Source: a bacterium
GTDB taxonomy: Bacteria > Pseudomonadota > Alphaproteobacteria > Rs-D84 > CACZYB01
Direction: 5' to 3'
Length of the DNA stretch: 61,345 nt
Assembly (NCBI GenBank): GCA_014803575.1
Contig: JAAVBO010000009.1
Span: 1-61,345, forward strand
The translations under genes were made by a program, and so were the position numbers. The notes below the pieces were generated by a model, which saw only the letters and a list, made by a program, of their open reading frames with translations, made no database searches and was not told the origin of the DNA. Of the stretch, positions 13,964 to 59,870 are shown piece by piece. Every line of letters starts with the position of its first letter. Positions within the stretch are counted from its first letter, which is position 1.

Positions 13964-13974
13964 ACTATCCTCCA

Positions 13975-15414: not shown

Positions 15415-15416
15415 GT

Positions 15417-19851: not shown

Positions 19852-22800
19852 TCACAGCTCTTTAAGCTTGCTCACGTCAATTTGCTGCGTAAGCTGCTCT
19901 GCGCGCCTTGACGTCATGACTTTGTACTCACAATCTATGCTTGATATAGCAATGTACTGGTCTGACCAGATATGCAGGCGCTCTCTGTTGCCCATGCCAT
20001 TGTTGCCTTGGAACCTGAACGAGTAGTATCCGTAATTGCCGTCGCGAGTGAACAGCTCTTTTTGCAGATAAACGTGCGTAGGCCTAGTCACTTTCTTTCC
20101 GCCTGGAGTCATAGTCTCAGCTACTATATTAACACAAGCATAGTTGTCAACGCCATAAATCAAGTCCATTTCAATAGGCCAGCAGAACGTCACGACCCAC
20201 TCAAACATGCAGTCTGTGTCTTCGTTGCTGCCTAAAGCGCTAGTAACAAGCACAAACGGATTGTACGTCCAGCCGTCTACTCCAGACACTTCTGACATAA
20301 CGTCAGCATACTTTTCCCTGTAAACTCTGTGGGTTACATACTTCTCCCTGTTCATTTTAGACCACTTGCCTAAATTGTTCTTCAACGAGTCAAGCATGTG
20401 CTCTACGAATATGCTCCTATTTATTATAACACGGTTAGGCCCTTGGTAAGCAAGGCCTGACGGCAGAGACACGACTTTAAACCATGAGCGGTCGTTGAAT
20501 ATAGTGGTTATTGGAGGAGGAAGCTCTCCAGACACTTGGCTTTTTGAAAGCACAGGCATGACTATATTGTCTGTTTCAGTGTCCTTGTCTTCAACCTCTG
20601 CATTGAGCCTCTTGAAAGTCATCAAGCTTGGCAATACAACCTCTTGGTTAACGAAGTCCCAGTAGCCTTTCTGCACGTCCCTGAAACGCTCCATTGTGTC
20701 CATTTTAGTAAGGCTGCTGCCTGTAAATATATAGAACGCCCTGGTGCTTTCGCTATAGAAGTATGCTTCTGTTGGCGTAGAGCCAATATACCTGAGGCCT
20801 GAGATAGGTATAATGTCGCTCACTATGTCCACACCGTCTTTCGTATTCACTGAGCAGATGTACTCTTCAGTAGCACGGTACACGTTTTTACCTATATTAA
20901 AGTCTATTGACAGCGGAGCCTTGTAAGCAGTCTGGTTGTTAGCTATCTCAGTGCACATGCTTGTGATGCCTTCTACAACGCCTAGCGGCATAGCTGTAAG
21001 CGTCTTTACTACAGCAGGGAGCGTAGACAAATGCTCAGTGAACACAGGCACTGCCAAGCGCTTCAAGTCTTTATCTTCTCCAATTGTACCAGCTTCAAGC
21101 CCTTTCTCTCTTGAGGCCACTGTCATTTGCGTCCACAGCTTGTCAATGCTCTCTATAGCTTGCACAGGCTCAGACTCAAAGTTGCCTTGCAGCTCATTTG
21201 CTGGCAGCTTGTTAGACCTCTTGAACCTGTCGTTCACTTGGAACGAGTACCAGAACGCCTGCCTGTTCTTGCCCATTCCAGGCGAGCCTACAAGGTTAAC
21301 CAAGCGATAAGACATGCCGTCAAAAGCATGGTACAGCTTGTTGTCTAAAATGCTGTTATATCCAGTGCAGTTAAGAGCTATAACGTTAGGCGTTATAGCG
21401 TAAGGCCTCATATATGCTTTCTCAACGCCGCGCTTAACTTCAACAGCTGCATACGGACAAGCGACTCCGCAGAAAGATTCGTTAACAATCATGTTGCTAG
21501 GAGGGCAGCTGATAATCTTAGTGTCTTTTACTGCAATCCACTGAGTCATGCCGTACGTGCAGCACATCGATAAGTCCCAGTCTTTGTCAATGACATAGTC
21601 CTGGAACAAAGACGGCGCAAACGCAGGCTCTGACACGCCTATGTTCTCGTTCTTAAACGCTGTGTTAGGCAATATCCTGCTCACGCCTTCAACGCACGCC
21701 ATGTCGTCTGGAAGCGTTTTTTCCTCAGCGTCACCGTATGGCGCTGCCTGGTAAAACGGCACGTTGCCTTTCATATAGTAAGCACGGAACGTGTCGCCTG
21801 CTTCAGTATCATAGTCTTCTTTAGTGTTGTCATATGTCCATGAGCCGCCGCATTTTTCTTTAGCAGTGGATTCAGAAGCTCTCAAGTTGCTAGAGTATTT
21901 AGGCACTTGCCAGCTGAAAATGTCCGTGTTCAGCTTGTTCATGTTGCTAGTGTCATACTTTTTCACTGAGCTAAGCGTCAGCTTCCATGGCGTATTCTTA
22001 ACGCCGCATTCTACATGCTCATCAGTATACTTGACGCTTCCTGACGCTATCCCCCAGCAAGGCCACATGAACACCTCGTTCTTCTCGCCGTACTTATGCT
22101 TGCCTTCGACGCTGAGAGCTTTCCTTGAAACAGCCCCGTCTTGCGTTACCACCAAGCCGTTGCTGCACATAACGTCTAAAATCTTGTCTATAGCTTCAAG
22201 AGCATACTTCTGAGCTGCGATGACGGCTCGTATAGCTGTAGCAGTAGCATGCAACGCTACTCCAACTAAGCCCAAGCTGTTGGCGCAAACCATCTGAGCT
22301 GCTGTGGCCTCAGCTGCCTTGTCAATGCCATCTGCAACATACTCTTCAATCCTTATAGCAGTGCCTATCTGCAACGTTGTCAACGAGCGCAAGCATAAGA
22401 AGAACTGCTGCACGCTTCCTTGCACTTGAACGTCTGTTACAGACTGCGCCACGCAGTCAGCTACAAACTGGTGCTCAACAAAGCCAGGCCCTGCAAAAAC
22501 GCGCTGCTGGTCAGACGTAGAATAGAACATGTCTAGCGACTTAAGCCCTGTAACAGCTGACGTCAATCCAGAGTCATTCTTAGACTGCGTGACTATAGCT
22601 GACGCTAGTAAGTCGCCTGTGTTAGCCATAGCGTTGTCAACAAACTTTCTTCCCAAGTCGCTTATCGCGCTCTGGTTGAGCTCCTCATTTACAGACTGCT
22701 TTCTGTCCAAGACGTTAAGGCTTTGCGAGAATGACGCCATTAGCACTGTAAGCATGTTGTCACCGAACTTTAGCTCTGTGTCAGCGCTCTGCGTAAACTT

Positions 22801-25800
22801 CTGCTTGTCAAACACAAAGTCAGAGCTGAGCAGCGGGTCAGTCTGCCTGTTCGTCTTCTCATTTATTCCTGAGCCTATGCCGTCGTCTTGCGCTTCTTTT
22901 TCAGGCTTGCTGTTAGAGCTGTTATAGTGGACGTAAGCGTACTGGCCGAAAGTCTGCTGCAAGTATATAATCTGAGCGAACCGCGGAGCAAGCGCATATA
23001 GCATTGGGTGAGTCAACGCGACGTCTAGTATATTCCAAACTGTTTGAGCAGCGCCGTCAAAACTAAGCATTTCTTTAAACTGAATAAATTGGACGAACTT
23101 GTCGCCAAACACCGAGCTCGCCCAAGACGGAGACTTATATACGGAAGCGTAGTTGTTCGTTATAGGCAGCAGCTGCTTAGTGAACGAGCCGTCTTCAAAA
23201 GACAAATGAGACACTATTCCATGCACTTTTTTAGATATATACCATTGCTGCTCGCTAGTCCCTACAACACGGTCAGTTATATTGTTCGCGTCGTTTACAT
23301 CACCAACCTCATTAGCAGCGTCAAGATTATTCAAATAGTCTCTATAATTGCTGCTGTCAAGAACGCTCAAAGGCTCGACCTTTCCATCGAAACCTTTATT
23401 AACGTCAAAGTTGCCGTCAGGAATCTGGCCTCCAGTCAAGTCTCCATGCAAGCCTACATAGCCGTACCCTTGAATCACTTTTACAAGCGACTTCTTGTTC
23501 AAGTCTATCACCATGGCCCATTGGTCAAAGTTATTAGACAAATGAACGCCTATTATAAGCCAGTCGCCTACAACTGTGTTAGACCAGTCAGCTTTAGACA
23601 GCAGCTGCGAAGCGTTCAAAGGATTGTAAGTGTTGAACACGGCTGCATTGTCTTCCATAATGACGTCATTCAAGTCGTCGCCTAAATTGCGCTGCCTAAC
23701 CCTTATCCTCTGCTCAAGCAGCTTGCTGAACGCGTTGCGCGGCTCATATACCTTTATCAGCGCATAGCCGTTGTCTTCTTGAACCGTAACAAGCATCGCC
23801 TGCCTGCTAGACTTGTACATGTTAGTGACAAAATGCTGCATTATGCTTGTAGGCAGCACTTCGTGGCGGCCTATCTCGAAGACCTTCTCAAACCTCTCTC
23901 CATCCCAGTCGTGCAGCTCTCCGGTGTTGCGCTTCAACACTAAGCTGCCGCTGTTAAGCTCAAGGACATGCTTGCTGTCAATCCACCAAAAGTTCTCAAC
24001 TTCAACCGTGCTGTTCCATTGCTGCTTCAGCAGCTGGTACTGGCCTAGCTGCTCTATCTTGCCAATCTTCTTAGTCTTGTTAGTCTTTATGTCTGTCGAG
24101 AGGACATACACTCCAGTGTCCACGTCTCTAGACAAATCCCATTTAAATGTCTTGCCGTTATAAGTGAACGACGCTATTGAGCCGTCTATTTTCCCTGTAA
24201 ATATGTCTTTTATAAAGGCGTTGCACTTAACAGCAATAATACGCTCTATCTTTACGCGCTGGCCGTCTTGCATTGTGACTACGTCTGTCGTCACGTTTTT
24301 AATAGGGTCTACAGTGGCGCGGCTCTGCACGCTATAAGTAGCTTGATGTATGCCATCTGATATAACGCACCTGTCGCCATCAGAAGAAACAAGAGTATAC
24401 TTGCTAAGCTGCACGAACTTGGCAGTGTTGTTCTTATACGTTAAGTCAAGGTTAAGGTAAAGCACGACTCTTTCTTTAGAAACTGTAGTGGAGTTACTAC
24501 TGTCATCTCTAGTTGTATAGTACCCATAGCTGCTGACCTTTACATTCTCAGTTACATTAGACAGTATGTCTGCATTGACGTCACATATAGTGTCTCCAAC
24601 TCCGTCGCCGCCAGCAGTGCTATAGTGCAATACCAAATCCTTGTTCGGGAACTTCAGCTTTATGTCTCTCTTCAGCGTGCTAAAGTTTATGTCGCCTAGC
24701 TCATACTCAATGTTATTTAGCAGCTTGTAATGCGAGTCAAAGAATATATGCTTAACGCTCTTTTCATTTATATTTGAAAACTTAGTAGATACAGATATTG
24801 GATAGTTGCTGAATGAAGGCAGCCAGTTTAATTCAAGCACTGAGTTATAAGCCACTACGCTCATGTTGCCTTCATCACTATTTACGTCGCCATAAGCTAT
24901 TCCAGGTATATAATAGTCGCATACAGTCTCCACCATCTTGTTGTCTTTTAAAATCGTGCTTTTCTTAGCATAGAAAAGGCTTGGCTCATAGTCTAGCTCT
25001 TTGAGCTTTTCAAGAGTTATGCTGAACGAACCTACATGCTTTACATTGCCGTTGCTGTCTTCTTCTTTGTAATGCGGCCTGCGCGAATTCTCAACGACGT
25101 CAAACATGTGGATGCATTTGCTGCCAGCTATATCCCTGTCAAAGTACACTGTGTCTTTGCTGCCAGACAGCTGGCTTGTAGGAACTGTCTCAAGCTTAAA
25201 TATAACTTTTTCATTCTTGTCTTCGCCGTCAATCGCGCCATTTCCAATGGGCTTGTCGTTTATATTGCTCGCATTAACTATCTTCGTATACGTCAGCCTT
25301 GTCTCTGAATTGCCCCATATAGGCCAGCCTACCTTTATGCCTTGGTTTATGTCGCCAGCGCAATACGGCTGCGCGCTGCTGTCAACAGCTTCTACTCCAG
25401 CGTTCAGCTTATAGGCTTCAGGAGAGCATTTGCCGCGGCTATACTTCACGAGCAAGCTGCTAAACCAGTCCGAACTGCCAGCGTTCTGCTGCACAAACTT
25501 GCCATCTGAATACTTGTAGTTTATTCCGAACACTATCTCTGAAGACACAAGGCTAGCCCTCGCCGTTTTTATAGCGCCTTTGCCATCGCTATCCTTTTCA
25601 CTATACACTAAGTTCATGTAGTTGTCAGGCCCGAAGTAGTACGGCAAGTCATGCTTCTGGTTGTTATATGATATGCTTCCTTTCTTGTAGCTTTTTGCCA
25701 GCCTGTTATTATACTGGTTTGTAGCGTCTTTAGAGTGGTGCCACACTTTAGTCACTATGTTTGACTCTGAAATGCCGCTGCTGTTTTCAAAAGGAATGAC

Positions 25801-28017
25801 GCCTACAGTGTTGCCAAACGGCACAGCGTACTTGCTATCAAACTCATATACTCCAGGGTCAGCATAATACAGCTCGTCTGACTCTTCAACTATCTTAACT
25901 TCAATATTGTTATAATCAAGATACGTTGTGTCATTGCTCAAAGCATAAGGGTCGAACACGTCATAAGGGCTAGGCTTTCCCTGGTACCACTTCTTCCAGT
26001 TCTTGTCAAATATGTCTTTTTCTTTCTGATAGTCTGACTGGTCTTCAAAGTCAGACTTCTTCAAGAACTTAAAGTCAAACGCTGCTATGTGCCTAATTAC
26101 AACTCTCTCCCTTTTATATGTTTTAGGCGTTACAGCTGTGTTTTTAGGGTCCACAGCAGAATCATATCTACCTAACACTTCAAATTTGAGATTGCTAAAT
26201 ACGCCAACTAAATGTATTGTACCATCGCTATATTTTTCTGCATAATAGCAGCCTTTATGCACAACGCCACTGTTGTCTTTAATGTTGAACTTTGGAACAT
26301 ACTGAAAAGGCCAGAAATCAGCTCCATTTTCATTAACATATCTAGATTCAAACGTACCGCCTATATACCTGCCACTGCTATCATATAGCTCATCATATGT
26401 TTTTGCAGCTTGGTCTTCTCTATATAATCCGTATACAATGCCAATAAACTTGGCGATTATGTTTGAAACATTGAGCTGTTCTGTTAGCAATGTATTTATA
26501 GCGTATGAATTTTCATCTGTAGTTACAGTAGTGTCTATGTCATCTGTTTTACGCTTTATCGATGTAACGTTGCTTATATCTTTTGTAGCATACATCTTGC
26601 TACTAGGCTCAAATATATTAAAGAAATCATCATTATAATCAAGATAATCATTAGGGTTAATGCTAAAGCTGCTGCTGAAAGAATAACAATACCCAAGATA
26701 TTTGTTCATTGTATCAGTGTTTTTTTCACGAATGTTAGCGTATTGCCTTGACGAGCCTAGCCACAGCTCGTCATTTAACGTGCTTCTCTTACAGCCAAAT
26801 ATGAAAGTATTCAAAGATACGGATATAGTGTTTCCAATAGATATTTGGTTGAACCTTAGCTTGAGCCCTTGTATAGGCTTGTACTCCTTGTCTTTGTCAG
26901 CTTCAGAAGTGCTTATATCGTACTCCTCGCCAAACACATTAAGAGCTTTTCCCTTGAACGTTGTCTTTGCGCTGCTCACCAAGCGCACTTCACCATTGTC
27001 CACGTTGTCACACTTCTTTGCGCTCGAAGTGCCTATGTTAAATCCTGCGCTAGCTACAGCCCATAATGGAACCTTATAGTTTATAACTAGGCCTTTGCTG
27101 TCGCCAGCCTTGAGCGTAGTGCCGCTAACATCAGCAGTGTACTTGTTAAACTTCAAGCTTTGCGACGGATTTTCTGTACCTATAAGCATGTCTTTTCCGT
27201 TAGTCTGGTCAGTGCAATTTACATATTGGAATGAAGTATAGAAAGAAGACATGTTATACATAATCTCTATGCTTTCTTTTGTATCATTGTATGTATAGTC
27301 AAACGTTATCTGGTTTCCTTTTACTGTAGGCGTCAGCGCTTTGCCTTCAGGAGTTGTGAGCTTCTTATCGCTCAAGCTGTATTTGTAGCTTCCCCATGAA
27401 TGGACGCCGTCCTTATAGCCAGTGTAGTTTATTCCTTCAATGCTGTCTCCAGAAAGCTTATAGCCTACAAGCATGTCAAAGTCAAGCAAGAAATAGCTCT
27501 CCAAGTCTTTTACAGTGAACGTTATAGAATAGTCGCTGTTCAACGTATAATCTAGCCCAAACTTGCTGGCGTCTGACTTGTTAAGCAGCTTCTTGTTTGC
27601 AGAGTCCCACTGCAGCTTGTACGGCTTTCCGTTAACGCTTCCAGCTATATCGCTGCCATTTACTTCTATGTCGCCTACAACAGCTACGCTCTCTGGAACC
27701 ACGTACACTTTATAAACAGGGTTATACGCCTTCTCGCTCTCATACACATTCAGCGTCTTCACGTACTTGTTGAACTGGCCCAAGCCAACAAAACAGCCGT
27801 TCTGGCTTTCACGGCTAGTGTTGTAGTCAAAGTTATACACTGACCATCCAGCAGCCCAGCCGTTTTTCTCAAACCTCAAGCTGTTAGGAAGGTATTTGCC
27901 CTGATACTTCTGCCAGTTATGCTGGAACGTCTGGCTTTGAAAAGGCACGAGCATGTCGCTCGTGTGTATGTCTAACCCTGCTTCAAGGTTTATTCTTGCT
28001 TTGCTTCCGCCTTCCAT
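19852..28017 (-). CDS. giant virion-module protein of unknown function, 2721 aa
   Basis: Uninterrupted 8166-nt ORF. GAGGTGG lies 7 nt upstream of an ATG whose first base (28017) is also the last base of the stop codon of the portal-like gene. No catalytic motif could be assigned by eye. Confidence 0.8.
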   Translation of the reverse strand: MEGGSKARINLEAGLDIHTSDMLVPFQSQTFQHNWQKYQGKYLPNSLRFEKNGWAAGWSVYNFDYNTSRESQNGCFVGLGQFNKYVKTLNVYESEKAYNPVYKVYVVPESVAVVGDIEVNGSDIAGSVNGKPYKLQWDSANKKLLNKSDASKFGLDYTLNSDYSITFTVKDLESYFLLDFDMLVGYKLSGDSIEGINYTGYKDGVHSWGSYKYSLSDKKLTTPEGKALTPTVKGNQITFDYTYNDTKESIEIMYNMSSFYTSFQYVNCTDQTNGKDMLIGTENPSQSLKFNKYTADVSGTTLKAGDSKGLVINYKVPLWAVASAGFNIGTSSAKKCDNVDNGEVRLVSSAKTTFKGKALNVFGEEYDISTSEADKDKEYKPIQGLKLRFNQISIGNTISVSLNTFIFGCKRSTLNDELWLGSSRQYANIREKNTDTMNKYLGYCYSFSSSFSINPNDYLDYNDDFFNIFEPSSKMYATKDISNVTSIKRKTDDIDTTVTTDENSYAINTLLTEQLNVSNIIAKFIGIVYGLYREDQAAKTYDELYDSSGRYIGGTFESRYVNENGADFWPFQYVPKFNIKDNSGVVHKGCYYAEKYSDGTIHLVGVFSNLKFEVLGRYDSAVDPKNTAVTPKTYKRERVVIRHIAAFDFKFLKKSDFEDQSDYQKEKDIFDKNWKKWYQGKPSPYDVFDPYALSNDTTYLDYNNIEVKIVEESDELYYADPGVYEFDSKYAVPFGNTVGVIPFENSSGISESNIVTKVWHHSKDATNQYNNRLAKSYKKGSISYNNQKHDLPYYFGPDNYMNLVYSEKDSDGKGAIKTARASLVSSEIVFGINYKYSDGKFVQQNAGSSDWFSSLLVKYSRGKCSPEAYKLNAGVEAVDSSAQPYCAGDINQGIKVGWPIWGNSETRLTYTKIVNASNINDKPIGNGAIDGEDKNEKVIFKLETVPTSQLSGSKDTVYFDRDIAGSKCIHMFDVVENSRRPHYKEEDSNGNVKHVGSFSITLEKLKELDYEPSLFYAKKSTILKDNKMVETVCDYYIPGIAYGDVNSDEGNMSVVAYNSVLELNWLPSFSNYPISVSTKFSNINEKSVKHIFFDSHYKLLNNIEYELGDINFSTLKRDIKLKFPNKDLVLHYSTAGGDGVGDTICDVNADILSNVTENVKVSSYGYYTTRDDSSNSTTVSKERVVLYLNLDLTYKNNTAKFVQLSKYTLVSSDGDRCVISDGIHQATYSVQSRATVDPIKNVTTDVVTMQDGQRVKIERIIAVKCNAFIKDIFTGKIDGSIASFTYNGKTFKWDLSRDVDTGVYVLSTDIKTNKTKKIGKIEQLGQYQLLKQQWNSTVEVENFWWIDSKHVLELNSGSLVLKRNTGELHDWDGERFEKVFEIGRHEVLPTSIMQHFVTNMYKSSRQAMLVTVQEDNGYALIKVYEPRNAFSKLLEQRIRVRQRNLGDDLNDVIMEDNAAVFNTYNPLNASQLLSKADWSNTVVGDWLIIGVHLSNNFDQWAMVIDLNKKSLVKVIQGYGYVGLHGDLTGGQIPDGNFDVNKGFDGKVEPLSVLDSSNYRDYLNNLDAANEVGDVNDANNITDRVVGTSEQQWYISKKVHGIVSHLSFEDGSFTKQLLPITNNYASVYKSPSWASSVFGDKFVQFIQFKEMLSFDGAAQTVWNILDVALTHPMLYALAPRFAQIIYLQQTFGQYAYVHYNSSNSKPEKEAQDDGIGSGINEKTNRQTDPLLSSDFVFDKQKFTQSADTELKFGDNMLTVLMASFSQSLNVLDRKQSVNEELNQSAISDLGRKFVDNAMANTGDLLASAIVTQSKNDSGLTSAVTGLKSLDMFYSTSDQQRVFAGPGFVEHQFVADCVAQSVTDVQVQGSVQQFFLCLRSLTTLQIGTAIRIEEYVADGIDKAAEATAAQMVCANSLGLVGVALHATATAIRAVIAAQKYALEAIDKILDVMCSNGLVVTQDGAVSRKALSVEGKHKYGEKNEVFMWPCWGIASGSVKYTDEHVECGVKNTPWKLTLSSVKKYDTSNMNKLNTDIFSWQVPKYSSNLRASESTAKEKCGGSWTYDNTKEDYDTEAGDTFRAYYMKGNVPFYQAAPYGDAEEKTLPDDMACVEGVSRILPNTAFKNENIGVSEPAFAPSLFQDYVIDKDWDLSMCCTYGMTQWIAVKDTKIISCPPSNMIVNESFCGVACPYAAVEVKRGVEKAYMRPYAITPNVIALNCTGYNSILDNKLYHAFDGMSYRLVNLVGSPGMGKNRQAFWYSFQVNDRFKRSNKLPANELQGNFESEPVQAIESIDKLWTQMTVASREKGLEAGTIGEDKDLKRLAVPVFTEHLSTLPAVVKTLTAMPLGVVEGITSMCTEIANNQTAYKAPLSIDFNIGKNVYRATEEYICSVNTKDGVDIVSDIIPISGLRYIGSTPTEAYFYSESTRAFYIFTGSSLTKMDTMERFRDVQKGYWDFVNQEVVLPSLMTFKRLNAEVEDKDTETDNIVMPVLSKSQVSGELPPPITTIFNDRSWFKVVSLPSGLAYQGPNRVIINRSIFVEHMLDSLKNNLGKWSKMNREKYVTHRVYREKYADVMSEVSGVDGWTYNPFVLVTSALGSNEDTDCMFEWVVTFCWPIEMDLIYGVDNYACVNIVAETMTPGGKKVTRPTHVYLQKELFTRDGNYGYYSFRFQGNNGMGNRERLHIWSDQYIAISSIDCEYKVMTSRRAEQLTQQIDVSKLKEL

Positions 28018-33242: not shown

Positions 33243-33805
33243 TAAATCACCTCTGCAAACTTACAACATTCTTTTATTATGTTCTTGAAGTCTTCTACTT
33301 TCTCATTCAGCACTTTAATCTTTACAAGCGTAAAACCGTCTAGCTTAGCTGCAATGCTCGAACCTGCGTGCCCCTCTGCTACTGAAGGCTTGGCTACAAA
33401 CTTAGATATTGACGGCGCTACATAGCCAGGGATAGAGACACAAAACTGCTTGTACCCAGCCTTTGTAATCTTTCCATAACTAGACGTTATCTGCAGCAAA
33501 GCCCTGCGCGCATCCTGCTCAGTCTCTGCAGACACATACACCACTGGCCAGTCAGCTGTCAATATATCTGCGTCACTTGCTGCAAGCCTTATAAGCGCTT
33601 CCTTCCTTCCATGCCCGTCAAGCAACAAATTCTCGTCGCCATTCTTCCACACTGCAAAAGGCATCATCAAGCCCTCTTTAACCAAGCTCTCAGACAGCTT
33701 AGCTATATCATCATCTGTCCTCTTCTTCAAGTTGCCCTGAAAAGACACCAAGTCAGTCAGCTTTATAGAATCGCTAGCAGCGCAATTTATCTTAATCATT
33801 TTCAA
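33242..33805 (-). CDS. ParB-like nuclease domain protein (possible small terminase or DNA-recognition subunit), 187 aa
   Basis: GGAGG RBS. IKLTDL...IAKLSESLVKEGLMMPFAVWKNGDENLLLDGHGRKEAL fits the ParB N-terminal domain pattern. Start and stop are coupled to terL. Confidence 0.55.
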   Translation of the reverse strand: MKMIKINCAASDSIKLTDLVSFQGNLKKRTDDDIAKLSESLVKEGLMMPFAVWKNGDENLLLDGHGRKEALIRLAASDADILTADWPVVYVSAETEQDARRALLQITSSYGKITKAGYKQFCVSIPGYVAPSISKFVAKPSVAEGHAGSSIAAKLDGFTLVKIKVLNEKVEDFKNIIKECCKFAEVI

Positions 33806-33857
33806 ACCTCCGCTATATAATAGAACATTATCATGTTTTCAGCACCTTGTAAACAAT

Positions 33858-33898
33858 ATTAGCTAATAAAACCAAACAAAATTCAACTGCTATATAAT
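33858..33898 (+). promoter_or_regulatory. ATTAGCTAAT-N25-TATAAT promoter-like element
   Basis: Palindrome at 33858..33867 and TATAAT at 33893..33898. Points into the non-coding hub. Lies 53 nt from the ParB-like gene start. Confidence 0.5.
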
Positions 33899-34020
33899 AT
33901 AACCGACAATAACTGCTAGAACAACAACATATTCTACGCGTAATATAGCAGGTTGTACGGCAACAACGGCGCCGTTCCGTGTCACGCTACACAATTCATT
34001 TGTAAATCTAAAAGTGTTAT

Positions 34021-34049
34021 TTGACATTCTAAAGGCTACAAATTATAAA
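34021..34049 (+). promoter_or_regulatory. TTGACA-17-TATAAA promoter-like element (rightward)
   Basis: TTGACA at 34021..34026 and TATAAA at 34044..34049. Located in the divergent hub. Confidence 0.45.
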
Positions 34050-34070
34050 TGTACAAAAAATATTTTTGAA
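34042..34070 (-). promoter_or_regulatory. TTCAAA-17-TATAAT promoter-like element (leftward, towards ParB-like/terL)
   Basis: On the minus strand, TTCAAA is at 34070..34065 and TATAAT at 34047..34042. Its -10 overlaps the -10 of the rightward element. Confidence 0.4.
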
Positions 34071-34143
34071 TTTCATTTTTCAATTTGAAAAATAAAAATT
34101 TTTTTGTACCAAAGTTATAAAATTGAGCTTTTCAAAATAAAAA

Positions 34144-34177
34144 TTGTACATTCACAATTTCATGTGTAAAGTAAAAT
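34144..34177 (+). promoter_or_regulatory. 13-mer TTGTACATTCACA with a downstream TAAAAT (15-nt spacer)
   Basis: 13-mer at 34144..34156 and TAAAAT at 34172..34177. The spacing is suboptimal. Confidence 0.3.
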
Positions 34178-34219
34178 ATTGCATGTTTAACGTTTTATGT
34201 GCCGTTCTTGAAGCTGTCC

Positions 34220-34254
34220 GTGTCGTTGTCCATGAATTTTGTGTCGCTGTCCAT
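34220..34254. repeat. direct repeat GTGTCG(T/C)TGTCCAT x2, 21 nt apart
   Basis: Copies at 34220..34233 and 34241..34254, in a GC-richer island of the hub. The 12-bp palindrome AACGGCGCCGTT lies nearby at 33965..33976. Confidence 0.6.
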
Positions 34255-34378
34255 TATTAGTTGTGCATGGCACATGAATATTGGCCCGGGGTTTTTGGGA
34301 AACGCGCTAGAAAAATTCTACCTGTGTTTTTAAATGTATTCTATTATATAAAATTATTTAATAATATAAATAAAAAAA

Positions 34379-34695
34379 TTAAATATATTTAATAAATAAT
34401 TAAATATAAAAAATTATTTATTAAATATATAAAATAAAAAATTAAATATATTTAATAAATAATTAAATAAAATTATTAAATATATTTAATAAATAATTAA
34501 ATATAAAAAATTATTTATTAAATATAAAAAATTATTTATTAAATATATTTAATAAATAATTAAATAAAATTATTAAATATATTTAATAAATAATTAAATA
34601 TAAAAAATTATTTATTAAATATATTTAATAAATAAAATATTAAATATATAAAACTATTAAATATATTTAATAAATAAAACATTAAATATATTTAA
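34379..34695. repeat. array of eight copies of the 14-bp perfect palindrome TTAAATATATTTAA
   Basis: Copies start at 34379, 34442, 34476, 34539, 34573, 34615, 34657 and 34682. Most are followed by TAAATAA. A 97-bp higher-order unit is repeated (34442 to 34539 and 34476 to 34573). Confidence 0.9.
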
Positions 34696-34990
34696 TAGAA
34701 CAAGGGATGGAGTACAATGGACCTTGCAGCTTAACTTTTAGTCCGTGACACTTTGTACATGTGAGGAGACCACGCCCCACGGTAATTGGATGGAGTGACT
34801 TGTGTTTGAGTTCCAAAGAAAGAAATGTGGTTAGTGTTCATGCTTTACGTTTCATTTCCATACCTCATTTTACCTCAATTTGGCTTCACGTTCTTGAACA
34901 GTGGAAAATGATTCAGGAATTATGGTTCAAGATTCACTGGTCAGGGTACGTGGAATAGTTCTAACTAATAGTTACACAGGAGGTGTTACT

Positions 34991-41618: not shown

Positions 41619-42206
41619 ATGATTAAGCTGAAGCCATTCATAAATACTGCTAGAGTGTGGGCTGAAAACAGCAGTTGCGCTAGGCTTAAGGTTGGCGCGT
41701 GTATAATAAACATGGAGACTAGGCGCTTGTTGAGCATAGGCTATAATGGAACGATTAGCGGCATGTACAATTGCAATAACATATTCGTTAAAAATGGTGA
41801 AGATTATTATGTATCTAAGGATATACTTAAATATATGGAAGTTGATTTGCCTTTTGAGCGTGACGGCTTTGCTCATATTGACAGGGATAACTGGCTGAGG
41901 CACCATCACTTGTTTAGCGATAAGCTTGAAGTGCATGCTGAGCAGAACGCTATATATAACTTGATTAAGACAGGCGCGTCTTATGATACAGATAACCTTG
42001 CTATTGTTTGCACGCATGCTCCTTGCAGGCAGTGCGCTAAAGCGATAGCTGCTTTAGGAATAAAGTACGTGTTCTATATAAATGAGTATGATAACAACGA
42101 AGAGATTGTAATGAAGTACTTTAACAGTGTAGGCGTTATATGCAGGCAAGTGCAAGATGACTGCGTGTATAATGAAGACGAGGAGGAGGATTTTGAGGAA
42201 GAGTAA
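41619..42206 (+). CDS. dCMP (deoxycytidylate) deaminase, 195 aa
   Basis: AAGGAGG RBS. Zinc-binding motifs VHAEQNAI and PCRQCAKAI of the CDA/dCMP deaminase family. Confidence 0.85.
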   Translation: MIKLKPFINTARVWAENSSCARLKVGACIINMETRRLLSIGYNGTISGMYNCNNIFVKNGEDYYVSKDILKYMEVDLPFERDGFAHIDRDNWLRHHHLFSDKLEVHAEQNAIYNLIKTGASYDTDNLAIVCTHAPCRQCAKAIAALGIKYVFYINEYDNNEEIVMKYFNSVGVICRQVQDDCVYNEDEEEDFEEE

Positions 42207-53317: not shown

Positions 53318-53644
53318 ATGAGCGCAGGATTAAACATAAACAGCATGGCGGTAAAGAACGTAGGGATAAAGCATGACGACGGCAAGAACAGGCTTGACTT
53401 AGTTGAGCCAAGCTTTATTGAAGGAGTTGGCGAGGTGCTTACTTTTGGAGCGCAAAAGTATGGCCCGGACTCTTGGCAGAATGTAGAAGATGGTGTTGAC
53501 AGGTACTATGCTGCCGCGTTGCGGCATTTGCTTGCTTATCGTAAAGGCGAGAAGATGGACCCAGAATCTGGAAAGAGCCACCTGTATCATGTCGCGTGTA
53601 ACATGATGTTCTTAGCGTATTGGGAGGAAAGCAATGGGCAATAA
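53318..53644 (+). CDS. dATP/dGTP pyrophosphohydrolase-like (DUF5664 / MazG-like) protein, 108 aa
   Basis: KHDDGKNRLDLVEP...VLTFGAQKYGPDSWQN...RYYAAALRHLLAYRKGEKMDPESGKSHLYHVACNMMFL matches the conserved blocks of this phage family as I recall them. Confidence 0.65.
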   Translation: MSAGLNINSMAVKNVGIKHDDGKNRLDLVEPSFIEGVGEVLTFGAQKYGPDSWQNVEDGVDRYYAAALRHLLAYRKGEKMDPESGKSHLYHVACNMMFLAYWEESNGQ

Positions 53645-54521
53645 CACAAGCGTGCTGAACATATATGGCGACTATCGTGATATTGACATAAACTATAACA
53701 TGACGTCTCAGGACTACTTTGTGCACATGCTTAGGTTTAGCCATGTAGTTGACATAGTTAAAGGCAAAAACATATTCGATATAGGCTGCGGAAAATATAC
53801 TAACCTGCTCAAGGCGCTGTGCATGATGGAGCGCGGCCCTGACTATAGGTTTTATATAGGCACTGATTATAACAAATGCAAGAAATGGCGCGAAGACTAT
53901 GCAGCTATATGGGACAAAACTGTTTTGCTAGATGAGCTTGACTTCACTGATGAGGACGACTTTGGCTTTATAATGGACAGCTTGGTGCAGGCGTTTGAAG
54001 GAGAGCCTTTTACAATCACATGCTTTGAAGTGCTAGAGCACATGGACTTCGAGATGCAGAACAAGTTCTTGTACAACTTGAGCAGGATACTGCATTATCC
54101 GAAGCTGAACGTAGAGTGCTGTCTATTCTCAACTCCAAACTTCAACGGCTATCCAGCTAAAAACCATATAAGCGAACTGAGCTGGAGGCTGCTTGAAGAG
54201 ATGTTCGATAGGTATGGTATTATTATAGCGCAAGCTCAAGGCTTGTCCGCTTGGAAGAAGTATCATAAGCAAGAATACCTTGCTCCTGGCACAAATCCTC
54301 CTGAATACGCAAAGCTTCTGCCTGTGCCGTTACAAAAAATGGTATGGGGCGCTGCGCTGCCGCGCAAGTACAGCAACAATATATTATATAATTTGATGGC
54401 TGATTTAAATGAGCTGAAGAGCTATGACGAATATAAGAAGCTAGGCTCTTATTCGTGGGGAGAATTTAGGCAAGGCGGCAGCTCTGCGGCTATATGCGAC
54501 AATCCGAATAACTTTAAGTGA
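53634..54521 (+). CDS. class I SAM-dependent methyltransferase, 295 aa
   Basis: Motif I IFDIGCGKYTN. Acidic post-I IGTDYN. ITCFEVLEHM. No DPPY or PCQ DNA-methyltransferase motifs seen. Confidence 0.55.
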   Translation: MGNNTSVLNIYGDYRDIDINYNMTSQDYFVHMLRFSHVVDIVKGKNIFDIGCGKYTNLLKALCMMERGPDYRFYIGTDYNKCKKWREDYAAIWDKTVLLDELDFTDEDDFGFIMDSLVQAFEGEPFTITCFEVLEHMDFEMQNKFLYNLSRILHYPKLNVECCLFSTPNFNGYPAKNHISELSWRLLEEMFDRYGIIIAQAQGLSAWKKYHKQEYLAPGTNPPEYAKLLPVPLQKMVWGAALPRKYSNNILYNLMADLNELKSYDEYKKLGSYSWGEFRQGGSSAAICDNPNNFK

Positions 54522-54528
54522 GGTTTAT

Positions 54529-54912
54529 ATGGCAGACTTGAATAGCTTTTCCTTTACAGGAAGATGCTCTAAAGATGCTGTTGTCAAGAAGGTTGGCAAC
54601 AACGTGTTGATGGAAGTTGATGTAGCTAACAATATCGGGTACGGTAATTACGCTACAACAAACTGGCTGAAAGTAAAAATGTGGGGCGAGCGCTGCTACA
54701 ATATTGCAGAAATCTTTAAGAAAGGAACAGTTGTAGCAGGGCAAGGCGAGCTTACGACTAACGAATGGACAGGTAATGATGGGTCTAAGCATGTAGACCT
54801 CGTTGTTACAGTGTTCAACTTGCAAGTTATAAGCAGCAAGTGCAAAGGCTGCTCTGATGAGCAGCATGAAAAGAAAGAAGAGGACAGCGAGCAAGGCGAG
54901 CTTCCATTCTAA
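54529..54912 (+). CDS. ssb: single-stranded DNA-binding protein, 127 aa
   Basis: OB-fold-like NSFSFTGRCSKDAVVK...WLKVKMWGERC...GELTTNEWTGNDGSKH. Acidic tail ends in EQGELPF. Confidence 0.8.
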   Translation: MADLNSFSFTGRCSKDAVVKKVGNNVLMEVDVANNIGYGNYATTNWLKVKMWGERCYNIAEIFKKGTVVAGQGELTTNEWTGNDGSKHVDLVVTVFNLQVISSKCKGCSDEQHEKKEEDSEQGELPF

Positions 54913-54916: not shown

Positions 54917-54949
54917 ATGGAGCCTCTAACATGGGGCTCCATTTTTATT
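54917..54949 (+). terminator. rho-independent terminator after ssb
   Basis: ATGGAGCC-tctaacatgg-GGCTCCAT followed by TTTTTATT. Confidence 0.7.
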
Positions 54950-54956
54950 GCTAGCT

Positions 54957-56963
54957 ATGGAGGAAATAGTGAACAGGCTTATAGCAATGGACGTCGAGAC
55001 ATACGGCAATTATTTGTTTGATGATGACGCGCGAATACTATGTTGCGGAGCTTATGGCGATGGCGTAAGCAAGGTGTTTGATTTCGATGACCCTAACCAA
55101 GTCAAAGAATGCATGGACATAATGTCAAATCCTAATATAGATAAAATATATCATAACTGTATATATGACACTGCGTGGAAATATTGCAAGTATGGAATGG
55201 ACATCAAAGGCGTCGTTCATGACACGATGACAAGGGCGTCGCTGATTGACGAGTACCAGCCTTTAAACTTAGATGACTGCTGTAAGAGGCTAGGAGTCAA
55301 GGGAAAGAACAAGGCAGAGACTATTGAAGCGTGGTTTGATGACTGGCAGACAGCAATGAAAGGCTGCGCTAAAGGCTTCAAGAAAGGCTTGGTAGCAGAT
55401 AATGAAGTGTTTAACCCAGATGATGGGCAAAGCTACAGGCTGTCAGATGGCGAGCTAGAAGCTCTAGTGACAGACAAGTATAAAAAAACTGTATGGGATA
55501 ACGCTCTCACGCTTTGGAGAGACTGCAAGGAATTCAAAGAAAACATGATTAAGTACAACTTGCAGGACTGCATTGCTACGTACAATCTTTTCATGGCTCA
55601 AGAGAAGTACATGAAGCCGCTGCAGAAAGTTTACGAGCTGGAGTGCAAGTTGATACCTATACTGCTTAAAATGAAGAAGACAGGCATAAGGTTTGACAAG
55701 AAGCGCGCTGACGAGCTAATTGTAAAAGTGTCAGAGAAGCGTGAAAGTGTTGAGCGTAATCTAATAGATGTATACGGAGTCACTGGCGAAATGGTAAACA
55801 GCTCAAAGCAGCTTGGAGCCAGGCTAAATAGCATGGGAGTGTATAGCCCTGTGACAACTAAGACTGGAGCGCAGTCTTGGGGTGAGGGAGCTTTGGCCAG
55901 AATACACCACCCGGTTATTTCCTTGATAAACGAGTATAAGAACTATGACGCTATATTGAACAAGTTTTTGCTAGGCTCTTTGAGCAAGTCGATTGTCAAC
56001 GGGCGCATACATTGCACGTTCTTGCCAATGCTGCGTGAGGAAGGTGGCACAGTTACAGGAAGGTTCAGCTGCAGGGACCCTAACTTGCAGCAGATACCTG
56101 CAAGGAACAAAGGCCATGGCGAAGACTTTTCACAAGACATGAGGTCGCTATTCTTGCCAGAAGAAGGCATGATGATATCTGCTATGGACTACAGCCAGAT
56201 AGAAGCAGTGCTGCTCGGACATTTCGCTAAAGGTCCTCAAGCTGAGTGGTTCAGGGAGCGGCTGAGGGCTGGAGACGACTTGCACAACATTGTCATGGAG
56301 ATGACGCATATAACTTATCGGCCAATCGTAAAAACGTTCAATTATGGCTGCATTTATGGGATGGGCTGGAAGACTGCTATGGAGAAAAACTACGTGCTGT
56401 TTGAGAAGTTTGCTAAGGAGCAGGGCGTAGACATTGAGACGTTCACAAAAAACCTTTATGACAACTACCATAAGAAGTTTCCAGTGATAAGAGACACAAT
56501 GGCATGGTGCCAGAACTTAGCTAAAGTACAAGGGTATATAGACACTATGGGAGGCAGGCGACTGCACAAGCCTAAGCCGCAGTACGACCCTAGCACAGGA
56601 AAGATAAACGACTTCATTTACAAGATGCTGAACAAGCTTATACAAGGCACTGCAGCAGATATACTTAAGCTAGCTATAGTAAAGGCTGAAGAGGAAGGTC
56701 TGTACAACGTCTTGACTCTGCACTTGCTGGTGCATGACGAGCAAGTGACCAGCGTTCCGTTTAACAAGGAAGGAGTAGAGGCAGCAGTCAGGCTGCAGCA
56801 GATTATGGCTGAGAGCTTTAAGGAAGAGCTGCTTGTGCCGATTAAAGCGAGCTGTGAACTAGGCCCTAACTGGGGGTACTGGTCTGGCGACATATACAAG
56901 GAGATGCAAGCAGGCAACTTTGACAGCAAGTTCTTCTTGGCAGACTACAAGAACACGCATTAA
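54957..56963 (+). CDS. polA: family A DNA polymerase with 3'-5' exonuclease domain, 668 aa
   Basis: Exo I AMDVETYG. Motif A DYSQIEAVLLGHF. Motif B RPIVKTFNYGCIYGMG. Motif C LLVHDEQV. Start taken at ATG 54957 (the track TTG is at 54948). Confidence 0.9.
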   Translation: MEEIVNRLIAMDVETYGNYLFDDDARILCCGAYGDGVSKVFDFDDPNQVKECMDIMSNPNIDKIYHNCIYDTAWKYCKYGMDIKGVVHDTMTRASLIDEYQPLNLDDCCKRLGVKGKNKAETIEAWFDDWQTAMKGCAKGFKKGLVADNEVFNPDDGQSYRLSDGELEALVTDKYKKTVWDNALTLWRDCKEFKENMIKYNLQDCIATYNLFMAQEKYMKPLQKVYELECKLIPILLKMKKTGIRFDKKRADELIVKVSEKRESVERNLIDVYGVTGEMVNSSKQLGARLNSMGVYSPVTTKTGAQSWGEGALARIHHPVISLINEYKNYDAILNKFLLGSLSKSIVNGRIHCTFLPMLREEGGTVTGRFSCRDPNLQQIPARNKGHGEDFSQDMRSLFLPEEGMMISAMDYSQIEAVLLGHFAKGPQAEWFRERLRAGDDLHNIVMEMTHITYRPIVKTFNYGCIYGMGWKTAMEKNYVLFEKFAKEQGVDIETFTKNLYDNYHKKFPVIRDTMAWCQNLAKVQGYIDTMGGRRLHKPKPQYDPSTGKINDFIYKMLNKLIQGTAADILKLAIVKAEEEGLYNVLTLHLLVHDEQVTSVPFNKEGVEAAVRLQQIMAESFKEELLVPIKASCELGPNWGYWSGDIYKEMQAGNFDSKFFLADYKNTH

Positions 56964-58238: not shown

Positions 58239-58392
58239 GTATAGCATACAAGGCTACGTGAACAGGGACTTGTGCATTGAGCTAGGCGTGTTTGAAACTA
58301 AATTAAGCCTCAGGGAAGTCTGGGACTTGATTATAGAAATATTTGATGACGGCAGCGTGCCAGAAGGCATAGTTGCAAGGAGGATTGTATGA
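58216..58392 (+). CDS. hypothetical protein, 58 aa
   Basis: Fills the gap before the dUTPase gene. ATGA overlap with the dUTPase start. Confidence 0.35.
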   Translation: MVSKKAIKYSIQGYVNRDLCIELGVFETKLSLREVWDLIIEIFDDGSVPEGIVARRIV

Positions 58393-58811
58393 GCATTTGT
58401 TGCAAGTGCCCAGTGGTTATGTTTGAAGGCGGCATACCGCCCGTCTACAAAACAAAAGGAGCTGCATGCGCAGATTTAGCTTTGCCTAACATGATTATGA
58501 TAGGCCCTAACAAGGCGCTTAGCATAAACCTTAAGATAGGCTTCGACATACCTGAAGGCATGAAGGTTGTAATGTACCCTAGGTCAAGCTTGTTTGCTAA
58601 GTACAGCATACTGATGCCTGTGTCTGTAATAGATTCAGACTACAAAGACAAGCCAGTGCATGCGTTCTTATACAACTGCTCTGACAAGCCTGTACGGCTT
58701 GAAGCAGGCGAGAGAGTGTGCCAGATAGAGTGTGTGCCGGCTGTTAACTGCGTGAGCTGGGACCGCAATGACGTTGAGAGAGACGGGGGGCTTGGGAGCA
58801 CTGGAAAATGA
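58389..58811 (+). CDS. dut: trimeric dUTPase-family nucleotide pyrophosphatase, 140 aa
   Basis: All five dUTPase motifs in order: GAACADL, YPRSSL, VIDSDYKD, GERVCQIE, RDGGLGSTGK. Confidence 0.85.
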   Translation: MSICCKCPVVMFEGGIPPVYKTKGAACADLALPNMIMIGPNKALSINLKIGFDIPEGMKVVMYPRSSLFAKYSILMPVSVIDSDYKDKPVHAFLYNCSDKPVRLEAGERVCQIECVPAVNCVSWDRNDVERDGGLGSTGK

Positions 58812-59524
58812 TTTTAGCTAAAAATACGTCTATATACATAGACACGCTGAAGAAGTGCCTTGCAAAGCCTTGCGAGGAGAACAGCCACGGAATATCCCAC
58901 GAGCTGCTTGGAAAAAAGATAGTGTTCAGGCCGTTCCACCACATTGATGGAACGTCTGAAGAATATGTGAATAACGAGCTGAAGTGGTATGACAGCAAAG
59001 ACTTATGCATCAAGTGCCATAAAGGCATAGCAACTAACAAAGTGTGGCAGAGCTGCGCCACCGATGACGGCTTCGTTAACAGCAACTACGGCTGGTGCAT
59101 ATATAGCAAAGAAAACTACGGGCAGTTTTATGAGTGCGTGAATGCTATTGTCAATGATTTGATGACCAAGCAAGCTTGCATGTATTACACTAGGCCTAGC
59201 ATACACAAAGAGCATAACGACGGAGTACATGCTAAGCGTGACATGATATGCACTTGCTATACGAGCAGCTTGCTGAGGTTCGGGAAGCTTGAGCACCATG
59301 TGCATATGCGCAGCAACGACATTTGGTACGGGCTTCGCAACGACCTTGCATGGCAGCAAGAAGTGCAGGTGCGCTTGATTGAGGCTCTGCATGTGCGCGA
59401 TATAAGGTGTTCAGCTGGAAGCATAGTATGGTTTGCAGACAGCTTGCACTTGTATAAGCGCAACTATGACAATGTAATGAAATTCTTGGAGAAGTACAAT
59501 GAAAGAGTCAGGCCTAGCGACTAA
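58808..59524 (+). CDS. T4 gp42-like deoxypyrimidine-nucleotide C5-hydroxymethylase (thymidylate synthase superfamily), 238 aa
   Basis: Blocks match my recollection of T4 dCMP hydroxymethylase: EYVNNELKWYDSKDL, VNSNYGWCIYSKENYGQFYEC, MYYTRPSI, DMICTCY, HMRSNDIWYGLRNDLAWQ, AGSIVWFADSLHLYKRNY. Confidence 0.7.
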   Translation: MILAKNTSIYIDTLKKCLAKPCEENSHGISHELLGKKIVFRPFHHIDGTSEEYVNNELKWYDSKDLCIKCHKGIATNKVWQSCATDDGFVNSNYGWCIYSKENYGQFYECVNAIVNDLMTKQACMYYTRPSIHKEHNDGVHAKRDMICTCYTSSLLRFGKLEHHVHMRSNDIWYGLRNDLAWQQEVQVRLIEALHVRDIRCSAGSIVWFADSLHLYKRNYDNVMKFLEKYNERVRPSD

Positions 59525-59870
59525 AGCAATATTCAACGCTCTGTGCAAGACTACGTACATTAGGGCTGTTGAATGGTTCAACGAGCATCCTGAAGAAGAG
59601 TACGCTTATTGGGGCAAAGACGAGTTTCTGCCAGGCTCGGCAAGCGAGCAGGAGAAAGCAAGCTTTGCTTCAAGGCATCCTGAAGTCGACGACATTAACG
59701 ACCACACGCTGATAAAGCTCGAAGGCGACACGGCAGTGCTGTGGCATTTCTGTCCGAGGCTTAAGGAAGGCATAAAAGATTTCTACGATTCAGGATATGA
59801 TGTAGGGAAGGACTACATGTGGACTGTAAAGCCAGACGGCGACAACTACAAGGTCTTTTTTAAATGTTAA
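59499..59870 (+). CDS. hypothetical protein, 123 aa
   Basis: GGAGAAG RBS. Last gene of the plus arm, followed by hairpin 59875..59894. Confidence 0.55.
   Translation: MKESGLATKAIFNALCKTTYIRAVEWFNEHPEEEYAYWGKDEFLPGSASEQEKASFASRHPEVDDINDHTLIKLEGDTAVLWHFCPRLKEGIKDFYDSGYDVGKDYMWTVKPDGDNYKVFFKC

Follow-up and report, generated by a model that had tools for sequence, protein, structure and literature searches.

The closest described counterpart of the locus reported here is the system of T4 and the other T-even phages, in which the dCMP C5-hydroxymethylase gp42 is accompanied by the kinase gp1, the dCTPase/dUTPase gp56, a dCMP deaminase and the phage's own DNA polymerase, and in which 5-hydroxymethylcytosine (5hmC) is tailored by glucosyltransferases. 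A second counterpart is formed by the sewage and coastal contigs recovered by MetaGPA, an enzymatic selection for modified cytosine, in which a carbamoyltransferase family converts 5-hydroxymethyl-dC (5hmdC) in DNA and 5hmdCTP to 5-carbamoyloxymethyl-dC and is inactive on 5-methyl-dCTP (5mdCTP) and on 5-hydroxymethyl-dUTP (5hmdUTP) (Yang et al. 2021, eLife, PMC8670742). Here, we describe a 238-aa open reading frame (ORF) of the thymidylate synthase (TS) family at 58808–59524 of contig JAAVBO010000009.1 (61,345 nucleotides, analysed over its whole length and hereafter called the window), together with the nucleotide-pathway genes that accompany it. The source is an uncultured tailed phage, of which the window is essentially the entire genome, and, to judge from its genes, the locus works like the T-even and carbamoyl-hmC systems as far as 5hmC.

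The window phage shares with T4 a homologous hydroxymethylase whose catalytic and specificity residues are the same, a dCMP deaminase, a DNA polymerase of its own and the logic of combining nucleoside triphosphate (NTP) pyrophosphatase with dUTPase activity, but it is unrelated to T4, with a genome of about 61.6 kb and without T4-like structural genes. The locus is not of the T-even glucosyl-hmC type because it has no glucosyltransferase, gp1 or gp56 homolog; a trimeric dUTPase and a PF18909 protein without sequence relationship to gp56 share the role of gp56 here, and the candidate for tailoring is a methyltransferase. Nor is it of the carbamoyl-hmC type, because the carbamoyltransferase is absent from the window: the MetaGPA contigs have the same domain set, and sister phages of the window phage (L003, L007, L010 and L126) carry the carbamoyltransferase, whereas the corresponding slot of the window holds a methyltransferase dependent on S-adenosylmethionine (SAM). 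The enzymes of SPO1 (gp29), Xp12 and RB69/DLP3 have in common with the window enzyme the TS fold, the catalytic Cys and the logic of acting at the nucleotide level before replication; they differ at diagnostic residues, with Asn at position 177 in SPO1, Leu at 143 associated with the methyl-product type and Asn at 169 in the 5-hydroxy-dCMP (5hodCMP) synthases, where the window enzyme has Asp at all three.

Identity of the TS-family enzyme

In a search of the PDB, the 238-aa protein matched the T4 dCMP hydroxymethylase structures 1B49, 1B5D, 1B5E and 6A9B with E=6e-39 over residues 32–221, whereas E. coli ThyA structures appeared only at E~0.08; PF00303 was matched above its gathering score. 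Among 50,697 deposited phage genomes, the closest protein-level matches were the dCMP hydroxymethylases of T4-like and Aeromonas phages at 35–41% identity, and megablast of the hydroxymethylase region against the same genomes gave no nucleotide-level relative. The motifs ELKWYDSKDL, NSNYGWCIYSKENY, YYTRPSI, DMICT and MRSNDIWYGLRNDLAWQ are all present, and a profile search of all six frames found this to be the only TS-family gene in the window genome.

It has been reported that N177D changes the substrate from dUMP to dCMP and that, on contigs whose cytosine modification was established experimentally, position 147 ranks second in discriminating power (Yang et al. 2021, PMC8670742), while L143D/E correlates with a hydroxymethyl product and Leu with a methyl product, and D169N is the mark of the RB69/DLP3-type 5hodCMP synthases (Lee et al. 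2026, PMC13326640). Asp177 alone leaves an Xp12-type dCMP methylase possible (bioRxiv 10.1101/2024.12.05.627091). These positions (143, 147, 169 and 177, in E. coli ThyA numbering) were read from the window protein, E. coli ThyA, T4 gp42, SPO1 gp29 and 120 database homologs; the E. coli ThyA sequence used has the expected residue at 16 landmark positions. A five-sequence MAFFT alignment displaced position 143 by one column, and its place was fixed with the larger alignments and from its distance to the catalytic Cys. At these positions, the window enzyme gives D/T/D/D, identical to T4 gp42, and the controls read as expected, with L/H/D/N in E. coli ThyA and D/N/D/N in the dUMP hydroxymethylase SPO1 gp29. 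The same D/T/D/D signature is found in all 72 clade members and in 46 of the 48 more distant homologs, and D169 is kept by the window enzyme as well as by all 120 homologs and every TS gene linked to the methyltransferase described below. The cytosine-specificity Asp (E. coli N177, T4 D179) is present as D179 in LRNDLAW, which aligns with FRNDYAW of T4; the acidic residue at the position of E. coli L143, associated with water access, is D145 in KRDMICT, preceding the Cys by three residues as in SDFMCT of T4; and the equivalent of E. coli D169 is D171 within MRSND. The catalytic Cys (E. coli C146, T4 C148) is invariant in the clade, as are the residues corresponding to T4 Glu60, Tyr96, Arg168/Ser169/Asp171 and His216/Tyr218; the phosphate and ribose ligands (R166, S167, H207 and Y209 in E. 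coli) are likewise invariant, as R168, S169, H214 and Y216.

On these sequence grounds, the ORF is identified as a gp42-type dCMP hydroxymethylase and not a ThyA, and its predicted product is 5-hydroxymethyl-dCMP (5hm-dCMP), formed from dCMP and methylenetetrahydrofolate. The products dTMP, 5hm-dUMP, 5-methyl-dCMP and 5hodCMP are rejected at the level of sequence because the window enzyme reads D/T/D/D like T4; a dTMP-forming ThyA is ruled out by Asp at 177, Asp at 143 and the PDB scores given above. The match of ORFs, motifs and accessory genes is far beyond chance. The initial annotation of this DNA had already described the two overlapping ORFs and their motifs, separated the second from a canonical ThyA, named T4 Asp179 as a specificity residue kept here and favoured 5-hydroxymethyl-dC, and the comparison with gp42, SPO1 gp29 and ThyA bears it out, the specificity residue being Asp as in gp42 and Asn in the other two; its suggestion that an SPO1-type 5-hydroxymethyl-dU pathway would suit the genes equally well did not survive the same comparison.

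The gene immediately upstream encodes a 140-aa dUTPase, which matches PF00692 (E=5e-18), PHROG 135 and solved dUTPases up to E=1e-11 (3C3I), with the five motifs aligned as AACADL, PRSS, VIDSDYK, GERVCQ and GGLGSTG; a weak, sub-threshold match to DCD (dCTP deaminase-like) is also seen. The base specificity of dUTPases is set by backbone geometry. At the junction GGAAAATGATTT, ATGA is shared by the stop of the dUTPase gene and the start of the hydroxymethylase gene, and a Shine-Dalgarno-like GGGAG site lies about 10 nt upstream of the latter start, which confirms the overlap noted in the initial annotation; the pair is adjacent or overlapping in relatives too. Of the role offered there for the dUTPase-family gene, clearing dCTP and/or dUTP, the dCTP part would more likely fall to the PF18909 protein.

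At the other end of the hydroxymethylase gene, a 123-aa ORF (59499–59870, plus strand) overlaps its 3' end and has no family match; homologues with 33–40% identity lie downstream of the TS gene in L003, L004, L092 and L096.

The variable slot and its occupants

The gene order Pam3_Gp34, PF18909, variable slot, single-stranded DNA-binding protein (SSB), PolA, dUTPase and TS is kept in the relatives of the window phage, with the same SSB following the slot in all of them. In L003, L007/L008 and L126, the slot holds a 560–582-aa protein with Carbam_trans_N and Carbam_trans_C domains, and L010 has its carbamoyltransferase immediately upstream of the pyrophosphatase instead, giving a contiguous block of carbamoyltransferase, pyrophosphatase, dUTPase and TS. 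The TS orthologues of the sister phages that are paired with this two-domain carbamoyltransferase are 45–51% identical to the window enzyme, and since the sister phages pair an orthologous TS with a 5hmC carbamoyltransferase, the TS enzymes of the clade are taken to make 5hmC. The window itself carries the Pfam set Thymidylat_synt, dCMP_cyt_deam_1, dUTPase, DUF5664 (now PF18909), SNF2_N and DNA_pol_A, and the same set is enriched on the contigs that survived the MetaGPA selection (PMC8670742). Taken together, it is very probable from the gene content that 5hmC or a derivative of it is present in the virion DNA.

In the window, the slot is occupied by a 295-aa methyltransferase directly after the pyrophosphatase gene. 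When 12 clade loci were retrieved through their TS gene, which makes them an unbiased sample as to slot content, four carried the methyltransferase, four the carbamoyltransferase, four neither and none both; all seven long loci retrieved through the methyltransferase carried a gp42-like gene, and none of the seven carried the carbamoyltransferase. In L091, the methyltransferase gene is relocated to a position directly upstream of the TS gene. Two further genes of sister phages were seen in the course of this comparison: a Tad2-like gene (PF11195, anti-Thoeris family) directly after the carbamoyltransferase of L007/L008 (4970–5293), and, in the structural arm of L006, whose slot is empty, a 796-aa protein with a Glycos_transf_2 domain (13595–15985), whose target may be DNA or a surface glycan.

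The slot methyltransferase

The methyltransferase went unrecognised in the initial annotation, which had spoken of hypermodified pyrimidines; the two genes named there do not by themselves show hypermodification, and it is the slot methyltransferase that provides the best candidate for a further modifier. Its start overlaps the stop of the PF18909 pyrophosphatase gene by 11 nt and is preceded by the Shine-Dalgarno sequence GGGAGGA. The AlphaFold (AF2) model has a mean predicted local distance difference test score (pLDDT) of 88 and a predicted template modelling score (pTM) of 0.86, and Foldseek matches it to class I methyltransferases with probability 1.0 (NNMT, FPP-MT, UbiG, TYW4 and a viral cap methyltransferase). 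The Pfam score of the window protein is 17.4 bits, under the gathering threshold of 27, which other members of the family exceed. On the basis of this model and of its motifs, the 295-aa protein is a class I SAM-dependent methyltransferase. The signature CFEVLEHM ... STPN ... NH..E characterises it, and the residues invariant in the family are motif I D-x-GCG (DIGCG), D78, D103, C-F-E-V-L-E-H-M-D-F, FSTPN and N177-H178-x-x-E181. An amino-methyltransferase of the Dam/N4C kind, acting on N6 of adenine or N4 of cytosine, was considered and rejected, because NPPEY (residues 221–225) is not conserved in the family.

All four top sequence relatives in the PDB are Hen1/HENMT1 RNA 2'-O-methyltransferases (E 0.002–0.03), and no other kind of relative was found there. 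The class I fold, the D-x-GCG motif, the E-V/L-I/L-E-H-L/M-D block and STPN align between the two; the alignments take in motif I, the E-x-x-E-H block, the metal site in Hen1, and STPN, and end before H178, while Hen1 lies outside the top 50 Foldseek matches. The window methyltransferase differs from Hen1/HENMT1 in having no RNA-binding or Pnkp partner and in being linked to genes of cytosine C5 modification.

Searching the 50,697 phage genomes by tblastn with the window methyltransferase gave no match, and a locus search of IMG/VR with the single protein found none, whereas an alignment-based query gave loci. A diverse profile raises the family to more than 1000 members, nearly all of them on contigs of phage size; most are stand-alone proteins of 240–300 aa on contigs of 30–75 kb. 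Among distant homologs (22–32% identity), a PF00303 gene lies within about 3 kb in eight of the nine loci with usable flanks (L101, L102, L105, L106, L108, L110, L112 and L118), on contigs unrelated to the window, and every full-length TS gene near such a homolog reads D/T/D/D. These distant cassettes often add a PRA-PH pyrophosphatase, a thymidylate-kinase-like P-loop protein and a dCMP deaminase, as in L101, where the order is methyltransferase, PRA-PH, kinase, TS, deaminase and PolA. The methyltransferase domain also occurs fused to other domains (L105, L107 and L111, Table 1), and the fusion partners are all DNA-acting, pyrimidine base-flipping enzymes. In L106, two paralogous methyltransferases of the family (9947–10720 and 13866–14843) lie on either side of the Asp-type TS gene.

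Cultured carriers of the distant branch are Stenotrophomonas phage AXL3 and Pseudoxanthomonas phage PW916. The AXL3 methyltransferase gp31 is 26.5% identical to the window protein (E=1e-10), and, as in the window, it is linked to an NTP pyrophosphatase, a dCMP deaminase and a TS of the Asp type with Asp at position 143; in this TS, gp28, Asp precedes the Cys by three residues, and T147, D169 and D177 are present. AXL3 differs in having a P-loop kinase in the cassette, a separate ThyX (gp50) and a TS of another subfamily, with an LPYD motif. It has been reported that AXL3 virion DNA resists 35 of 37 restriction enzymes, among them all those tested that have G/C in their sites, and is cut only by TasI and Tru1I, which recognise sites made up of A and T alone, and the chemistry of the modification was not identified in that study (McCutcheon et al. 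2020, PMC7504290).

Proposed pathway and alternative explanations

Read from its gene content, the window phage probably swaps cytosine for a C5-modified cytosine through a T4-like nucleotide pathway that acts before replication. The gp42-type enzyme would convert dCMP, methylenetetrahydrofolate and water to 5hm-dCMP. The PF18909 pyrophosphohydrolase would take the part of T4 gp56, hydrolysing dCTP to dCMP and in this way removing the competitor and feeding the hydroxymethylase; this role is proposed because the family is enriched on cytosine-modified contigs (as DUF5664, p=3e-19 in the MetaGPA data, PMC8670742), because the gene lies directly upstream of gp42-like genes in other clades (L045, L052 and L056), and because PRA-PH is placed equivalently in the distant cassettes. 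The dUTPase and the deaminase would supply the host thymidylate synthase by routing deoxyuridine nucleotides to dUMP and would prevent uracil from entering DNA, and the deaminase, whose family is strongly enriched on cytosine-modified contigs (MetaGPA, PMC8670742; also bioRxiv 10.1101/2024.12.05.627091), may possibly act on 5hm-dCMP as well. Phosphorylation of 5hm-dCMP would fall to a host kinase rather than to a phage gp1, a host enzyme being needed because no phage kinase was found, and the phage family A polymerase would incorporate 5hm-dCTP. The methyltransferase would then add a further modification to 5hmC, either within DNA or at the nucleotide level, a step to which we give slightly less than an even chance. 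The favoured reaction would be methylation of the hydroxymethyl oxygen to give 5-methoxymethylcytosine, because the enzyme stands in the place of an O-carbamoyltransferase and is similar to enzymes of the Hen1/UbiG type, which methylate hydroxyls, with N4 methylation as the alternative; literature searches for 5-methoxymethylcytosine or N4-methyl-5-(hydroxy)methylcytosine in phage DNA returned nothing relevant. The outcome would be a genome shielded from restriction and other nucleases.

The identity of the base has to be weighed against four other readings of the same genes. If the TS homolog hydroxymethylated dUMP, as in SPO1, and 5-hydroxymethyluracil (5hmU) replaced thymine, a deaminase and a dUTPase that both yield dUMP would be expected companions, as would a genome without ThyA or ThyX; however, the specificity residue is Asp here against Asn in SPO1 gp29, position 147 is Thr against Asn, gp42 is far nearer than any other PDB entry, and the carbamoyltransferase family of the sister phages is inactive on 5hmdUTP, so that this reading retains a close to negligible probability. 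A mixed outcome, in which 5hm-dCMP is made and part of it is deaminated by the phage dCMP deaminase, leaving DNA with 5hmC and some 5hmU in place of thymine, is unlikely: co-expression with T4 gp42 and gp1 did give 5hmdU in vivo for seven phage deaminases that accompany Asp-type TS genes (bioRxiv 10.1101/2024.12.05.627091), and the window genome has such a deaminase without a thymidylate synthase of its own, but 17 kb separate the deaminase gene from the TS gene here, whereas the coupled pairs of the same study typically lie within 3 kb. Metagenomic TS homologs of the Asp177 type have also been shown there to make 5-methyl-dC, and the methyltransferase domain occurs fused to C5-cytosine DNA methylases, both of which would accord with an Xp12-type dCMP methylase, a genome containing 5-methylcytosine (5mC) and a methyltransferase acting on 5mC or on something else; yet position 143 is the Asp that correlates with a hydroxymethyl product and not Leu, the protein is 38–41% identical to T4-like hydroxymethylases, and the sister carbamoyltransferase requires a hydroxyl, which makes such an enzyme highly improbable. 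Since the combination of N177D and L143D/E can also be found in 5hodCMP synthases (PMC13326640), 5-hydroxycytosine of the RB69/DLP3 type, methylated to 5-methoxycytosine by the slot enzyme, was weighed too, but the diagnostic D169N is absent from the window enzyme, its 120 homologs and the methyltransferase-linked TS genes alike, and this explanation is considered extremely improbable.

It is also a possibility to be taken seriously, though on balance a doubtful one, that the hydroxymethylase pathway is real and the methyltransferase stands outside it, as a Hen1-like RNA 2'-O-methyltransferase or as an enzyme directed at a small molecule or at the host, in which case the virion DNA would contain plain 5hmC. 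The Hen1/HENMT1 relatives in the PDB and the structural neighbours among small-molecule and cap methyltransferases are in keeping with this, as is the empty slot in one third of the sister phages, which makes tailoring dispensable. On the other hand, the link to an Asp-type TS recurs in unrelated lineages and in three gene orders, the domain has DNA base-flipping enzymes as fusion partners, it never co-occurs with the 5hmC carbamoyltransferase, and no Pnkp-type RNA-repair partner was found in the scans of the window genome.

Besides the dispensability of tailoring, several observations weigh against the pathway with a 5hmC-directed methyltransferase as proposed here. The PF18909 protein shows no similarity to T4 gp56 by BLASTP (E=0.89), so that there is no ground for calling it a homologue of the T4 dCTPase; it has no sequence relative in the PDB, its family is named for the hydrolysis of dATP/dGTP (MazZ), and its assignment as a dCTPase is a guess. 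No P-loop nucleotide kinase was found in the window ORFs scanned, and when all frames and genes were screened for the Walker-A motif of a phage dNMP kinase, only the SNF2 and VapE helicases came up; without such a kinase, the step from 5hm-dCMP to 5hm-dCDP lacks an explanation. As for the methyltransferase, its Foldseek matches are generic small-molecule enzymes at a template modelling (TM) score of about 0.45 and give no clue to the substrate, the similarity to Hen1 is marginal, and no methyltransferase family is listed in the part of the MetaGPA enriched-domain table that was consulted (PMC8670742). The product of a C5-methylase, 5mC, has no hydroxyl, and for this reason the C5-methylase fusions are explained equally well or better by N4 or other methylation than by O-methylation; a PDB sequence search of two neighbours of the L107 fusion, which is of low sensitivity, found no TET-like partner.

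Genome context

The features on which the analysis rests are collected in Table 1.

Table 1. Coordinates of the features discussed, in the window unless another contig is named.
Feature	Position	Strand	Basis
dCMP C5-hydroxymethylase (5hm-dCMP synthase), T4 gp42 type (from sequence)	58808..59524	+	PDB, PF00303, PHROG 160, diagnostic residues
Trimeric dUTPase, translationally coupled to the hydroxymethylase	58389..58811	+	PF00692, PDB dUTPases, junction read
dCMP deaminase	41619..42206	+	PF00383 E=5e-16; PHROG 174 E=9e-38
All-alpha NTP pyrophosphohydrolase, candidate dCTPase	53318..53644	+	PF18909 (formerly DUF5664) E=5e-32; PHROG 801
Class I SAM-dependent methyltransferase, Methyltransf_23-like, candidate 5hmC-tailoring enzyme	53634..54521	+	AF2, Foldseek, motifs, slot
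SSB, downstream border of the variable slot	54529..54912	+	PF00436 in the L005 copy, 100% identical to the window
Family A DNA polymerase with 3'-5' exonuclease	54948..56963	+	PF00476 E=1.6e-56; PF01612 E=4.8e-8
Right end/left end junction	window 1 and 61345; L005 12539-12814		276 nt absent from the window; L005 join
C5-cytosine DNA methylase, disordered linker of about 270 aa and methyltransferase domain, 843 aa	L107 7242-9773		
C-terminal remnant of a C5-methylase and methyltransferase domain, Asp-type TS downstream	L105 209-1567		
Methyltransferase domain and uracil-DNA glycosylase (UDG)-superfamily domain	L111 349-1725		
AXL3 cassette: gp31 methyltransferase, gp30 NTP pyrophosphatase, gp29 kinase, gp28 'thymidylate synthase', gp27 dCMP deaminase	NC_071036.1 24050-28084 (L121)		

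The window represents about 99.6% of a phage genome of about 61.6 kb. The independent contig L005 is 100% identical to it over 12.5 kb, leaves the right end of the window and re-enters at the left end after 276 nt, and because it bridges the two ends in this way, the genome is circular or circularly permuted. The break falls inside a minus-strand gene; neither a terminal repeat nor tRNA genes were found in the window, and its relatives are contigs of 56–64 kb.

The left 34 kb lie on the minus strand and form a highly divergent structural arm, with a large terminase, a portal-like protein, a tail fibre with a Peptidase_S74 chaperone, a CHAP lysin and a 2721-aa ORF (19852–28017, minus strand) that has no Pfam match at E<=0.01; most structural proteins of the phage have no Pfam or PHROG match. 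In the sister phage L124, an RVT_1 reverse transcriptase gene (13036–14055) adjoins the tail genes and may indicate a diversity-generating retroelement, and no counterpart was seen in the window. The right arm, on the plus strand, carries the replication and nucleotide module, comprising the dCMP deaminase, an SNF2 helicase, a DUF5906/VapE primase-helicase, Pam3 gp33/gp34-like proteins, the PF18909 pyrophosphohydrolase, the 295-aa protein, the SSB, the family A DNA polymerase and the dUTPase–hydroxymethylase pair. The deaminase and the pyrophosphohydrolase had been located in the initial annotation and are confirmed by their family matches; no ThyA, ThyX or glycosyltransferase was found in any window ORF scanned, as had also been stated there, together with the lack of a kinase for hydroxymethylated dNMPs. 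A system of the MazZ/PurZ type with 2-aminoadenine (Z) in the genome was considered in view of the PF18909 protein and rejected, the Pfam scans of the genome having found no adenylosuccinate-synthetase-like ORF.

Between the divergently transcribed arms, in an intergenic gap with 32% GC (33805–34761) where the GC skew flips sign, eight copies of a palindromic motif composed only of A and T, with the core ATTAAATATATTTAAT, are arrayed at 34373–34697 with spacings of 25–63 nt. The array may be an origin or an operator array; as the motif contains no cytosine, it would stay unmodified in a cytosine-modified genome.

Significance

The locus places T4-style cytosine replacement in an unrelated lineage of uncultured phages, which is expected in light of MetaGPA; what is added is that, within one clade, one and the same slot holds a validated 5hmC carbamoyltransferase, a SAM methyltransferase or nothing. 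We tentatively suggest that the methyltransferase family may be an unrecognised class of phage DNA-modification enzymes that methylate C5-substituted cytosine. AXL3 is an already cultured phage with a homologous cassette, so the hypothesis can be addressed directly there. If it is true, the family would provide a new enzyme for the manipulation of 5hmC, with potential use in epigenetic sequencing chemistry, and its product, 5-methoxymethylcytosine or N4-methyl-5-hydroxymethylcytosine, would be a base new to natural DNA. For the phages themselves, such methylation would be a third way to tailor 5hmC beside glycosylation and carbamoylation and would account for the G/C modification of AXL3.

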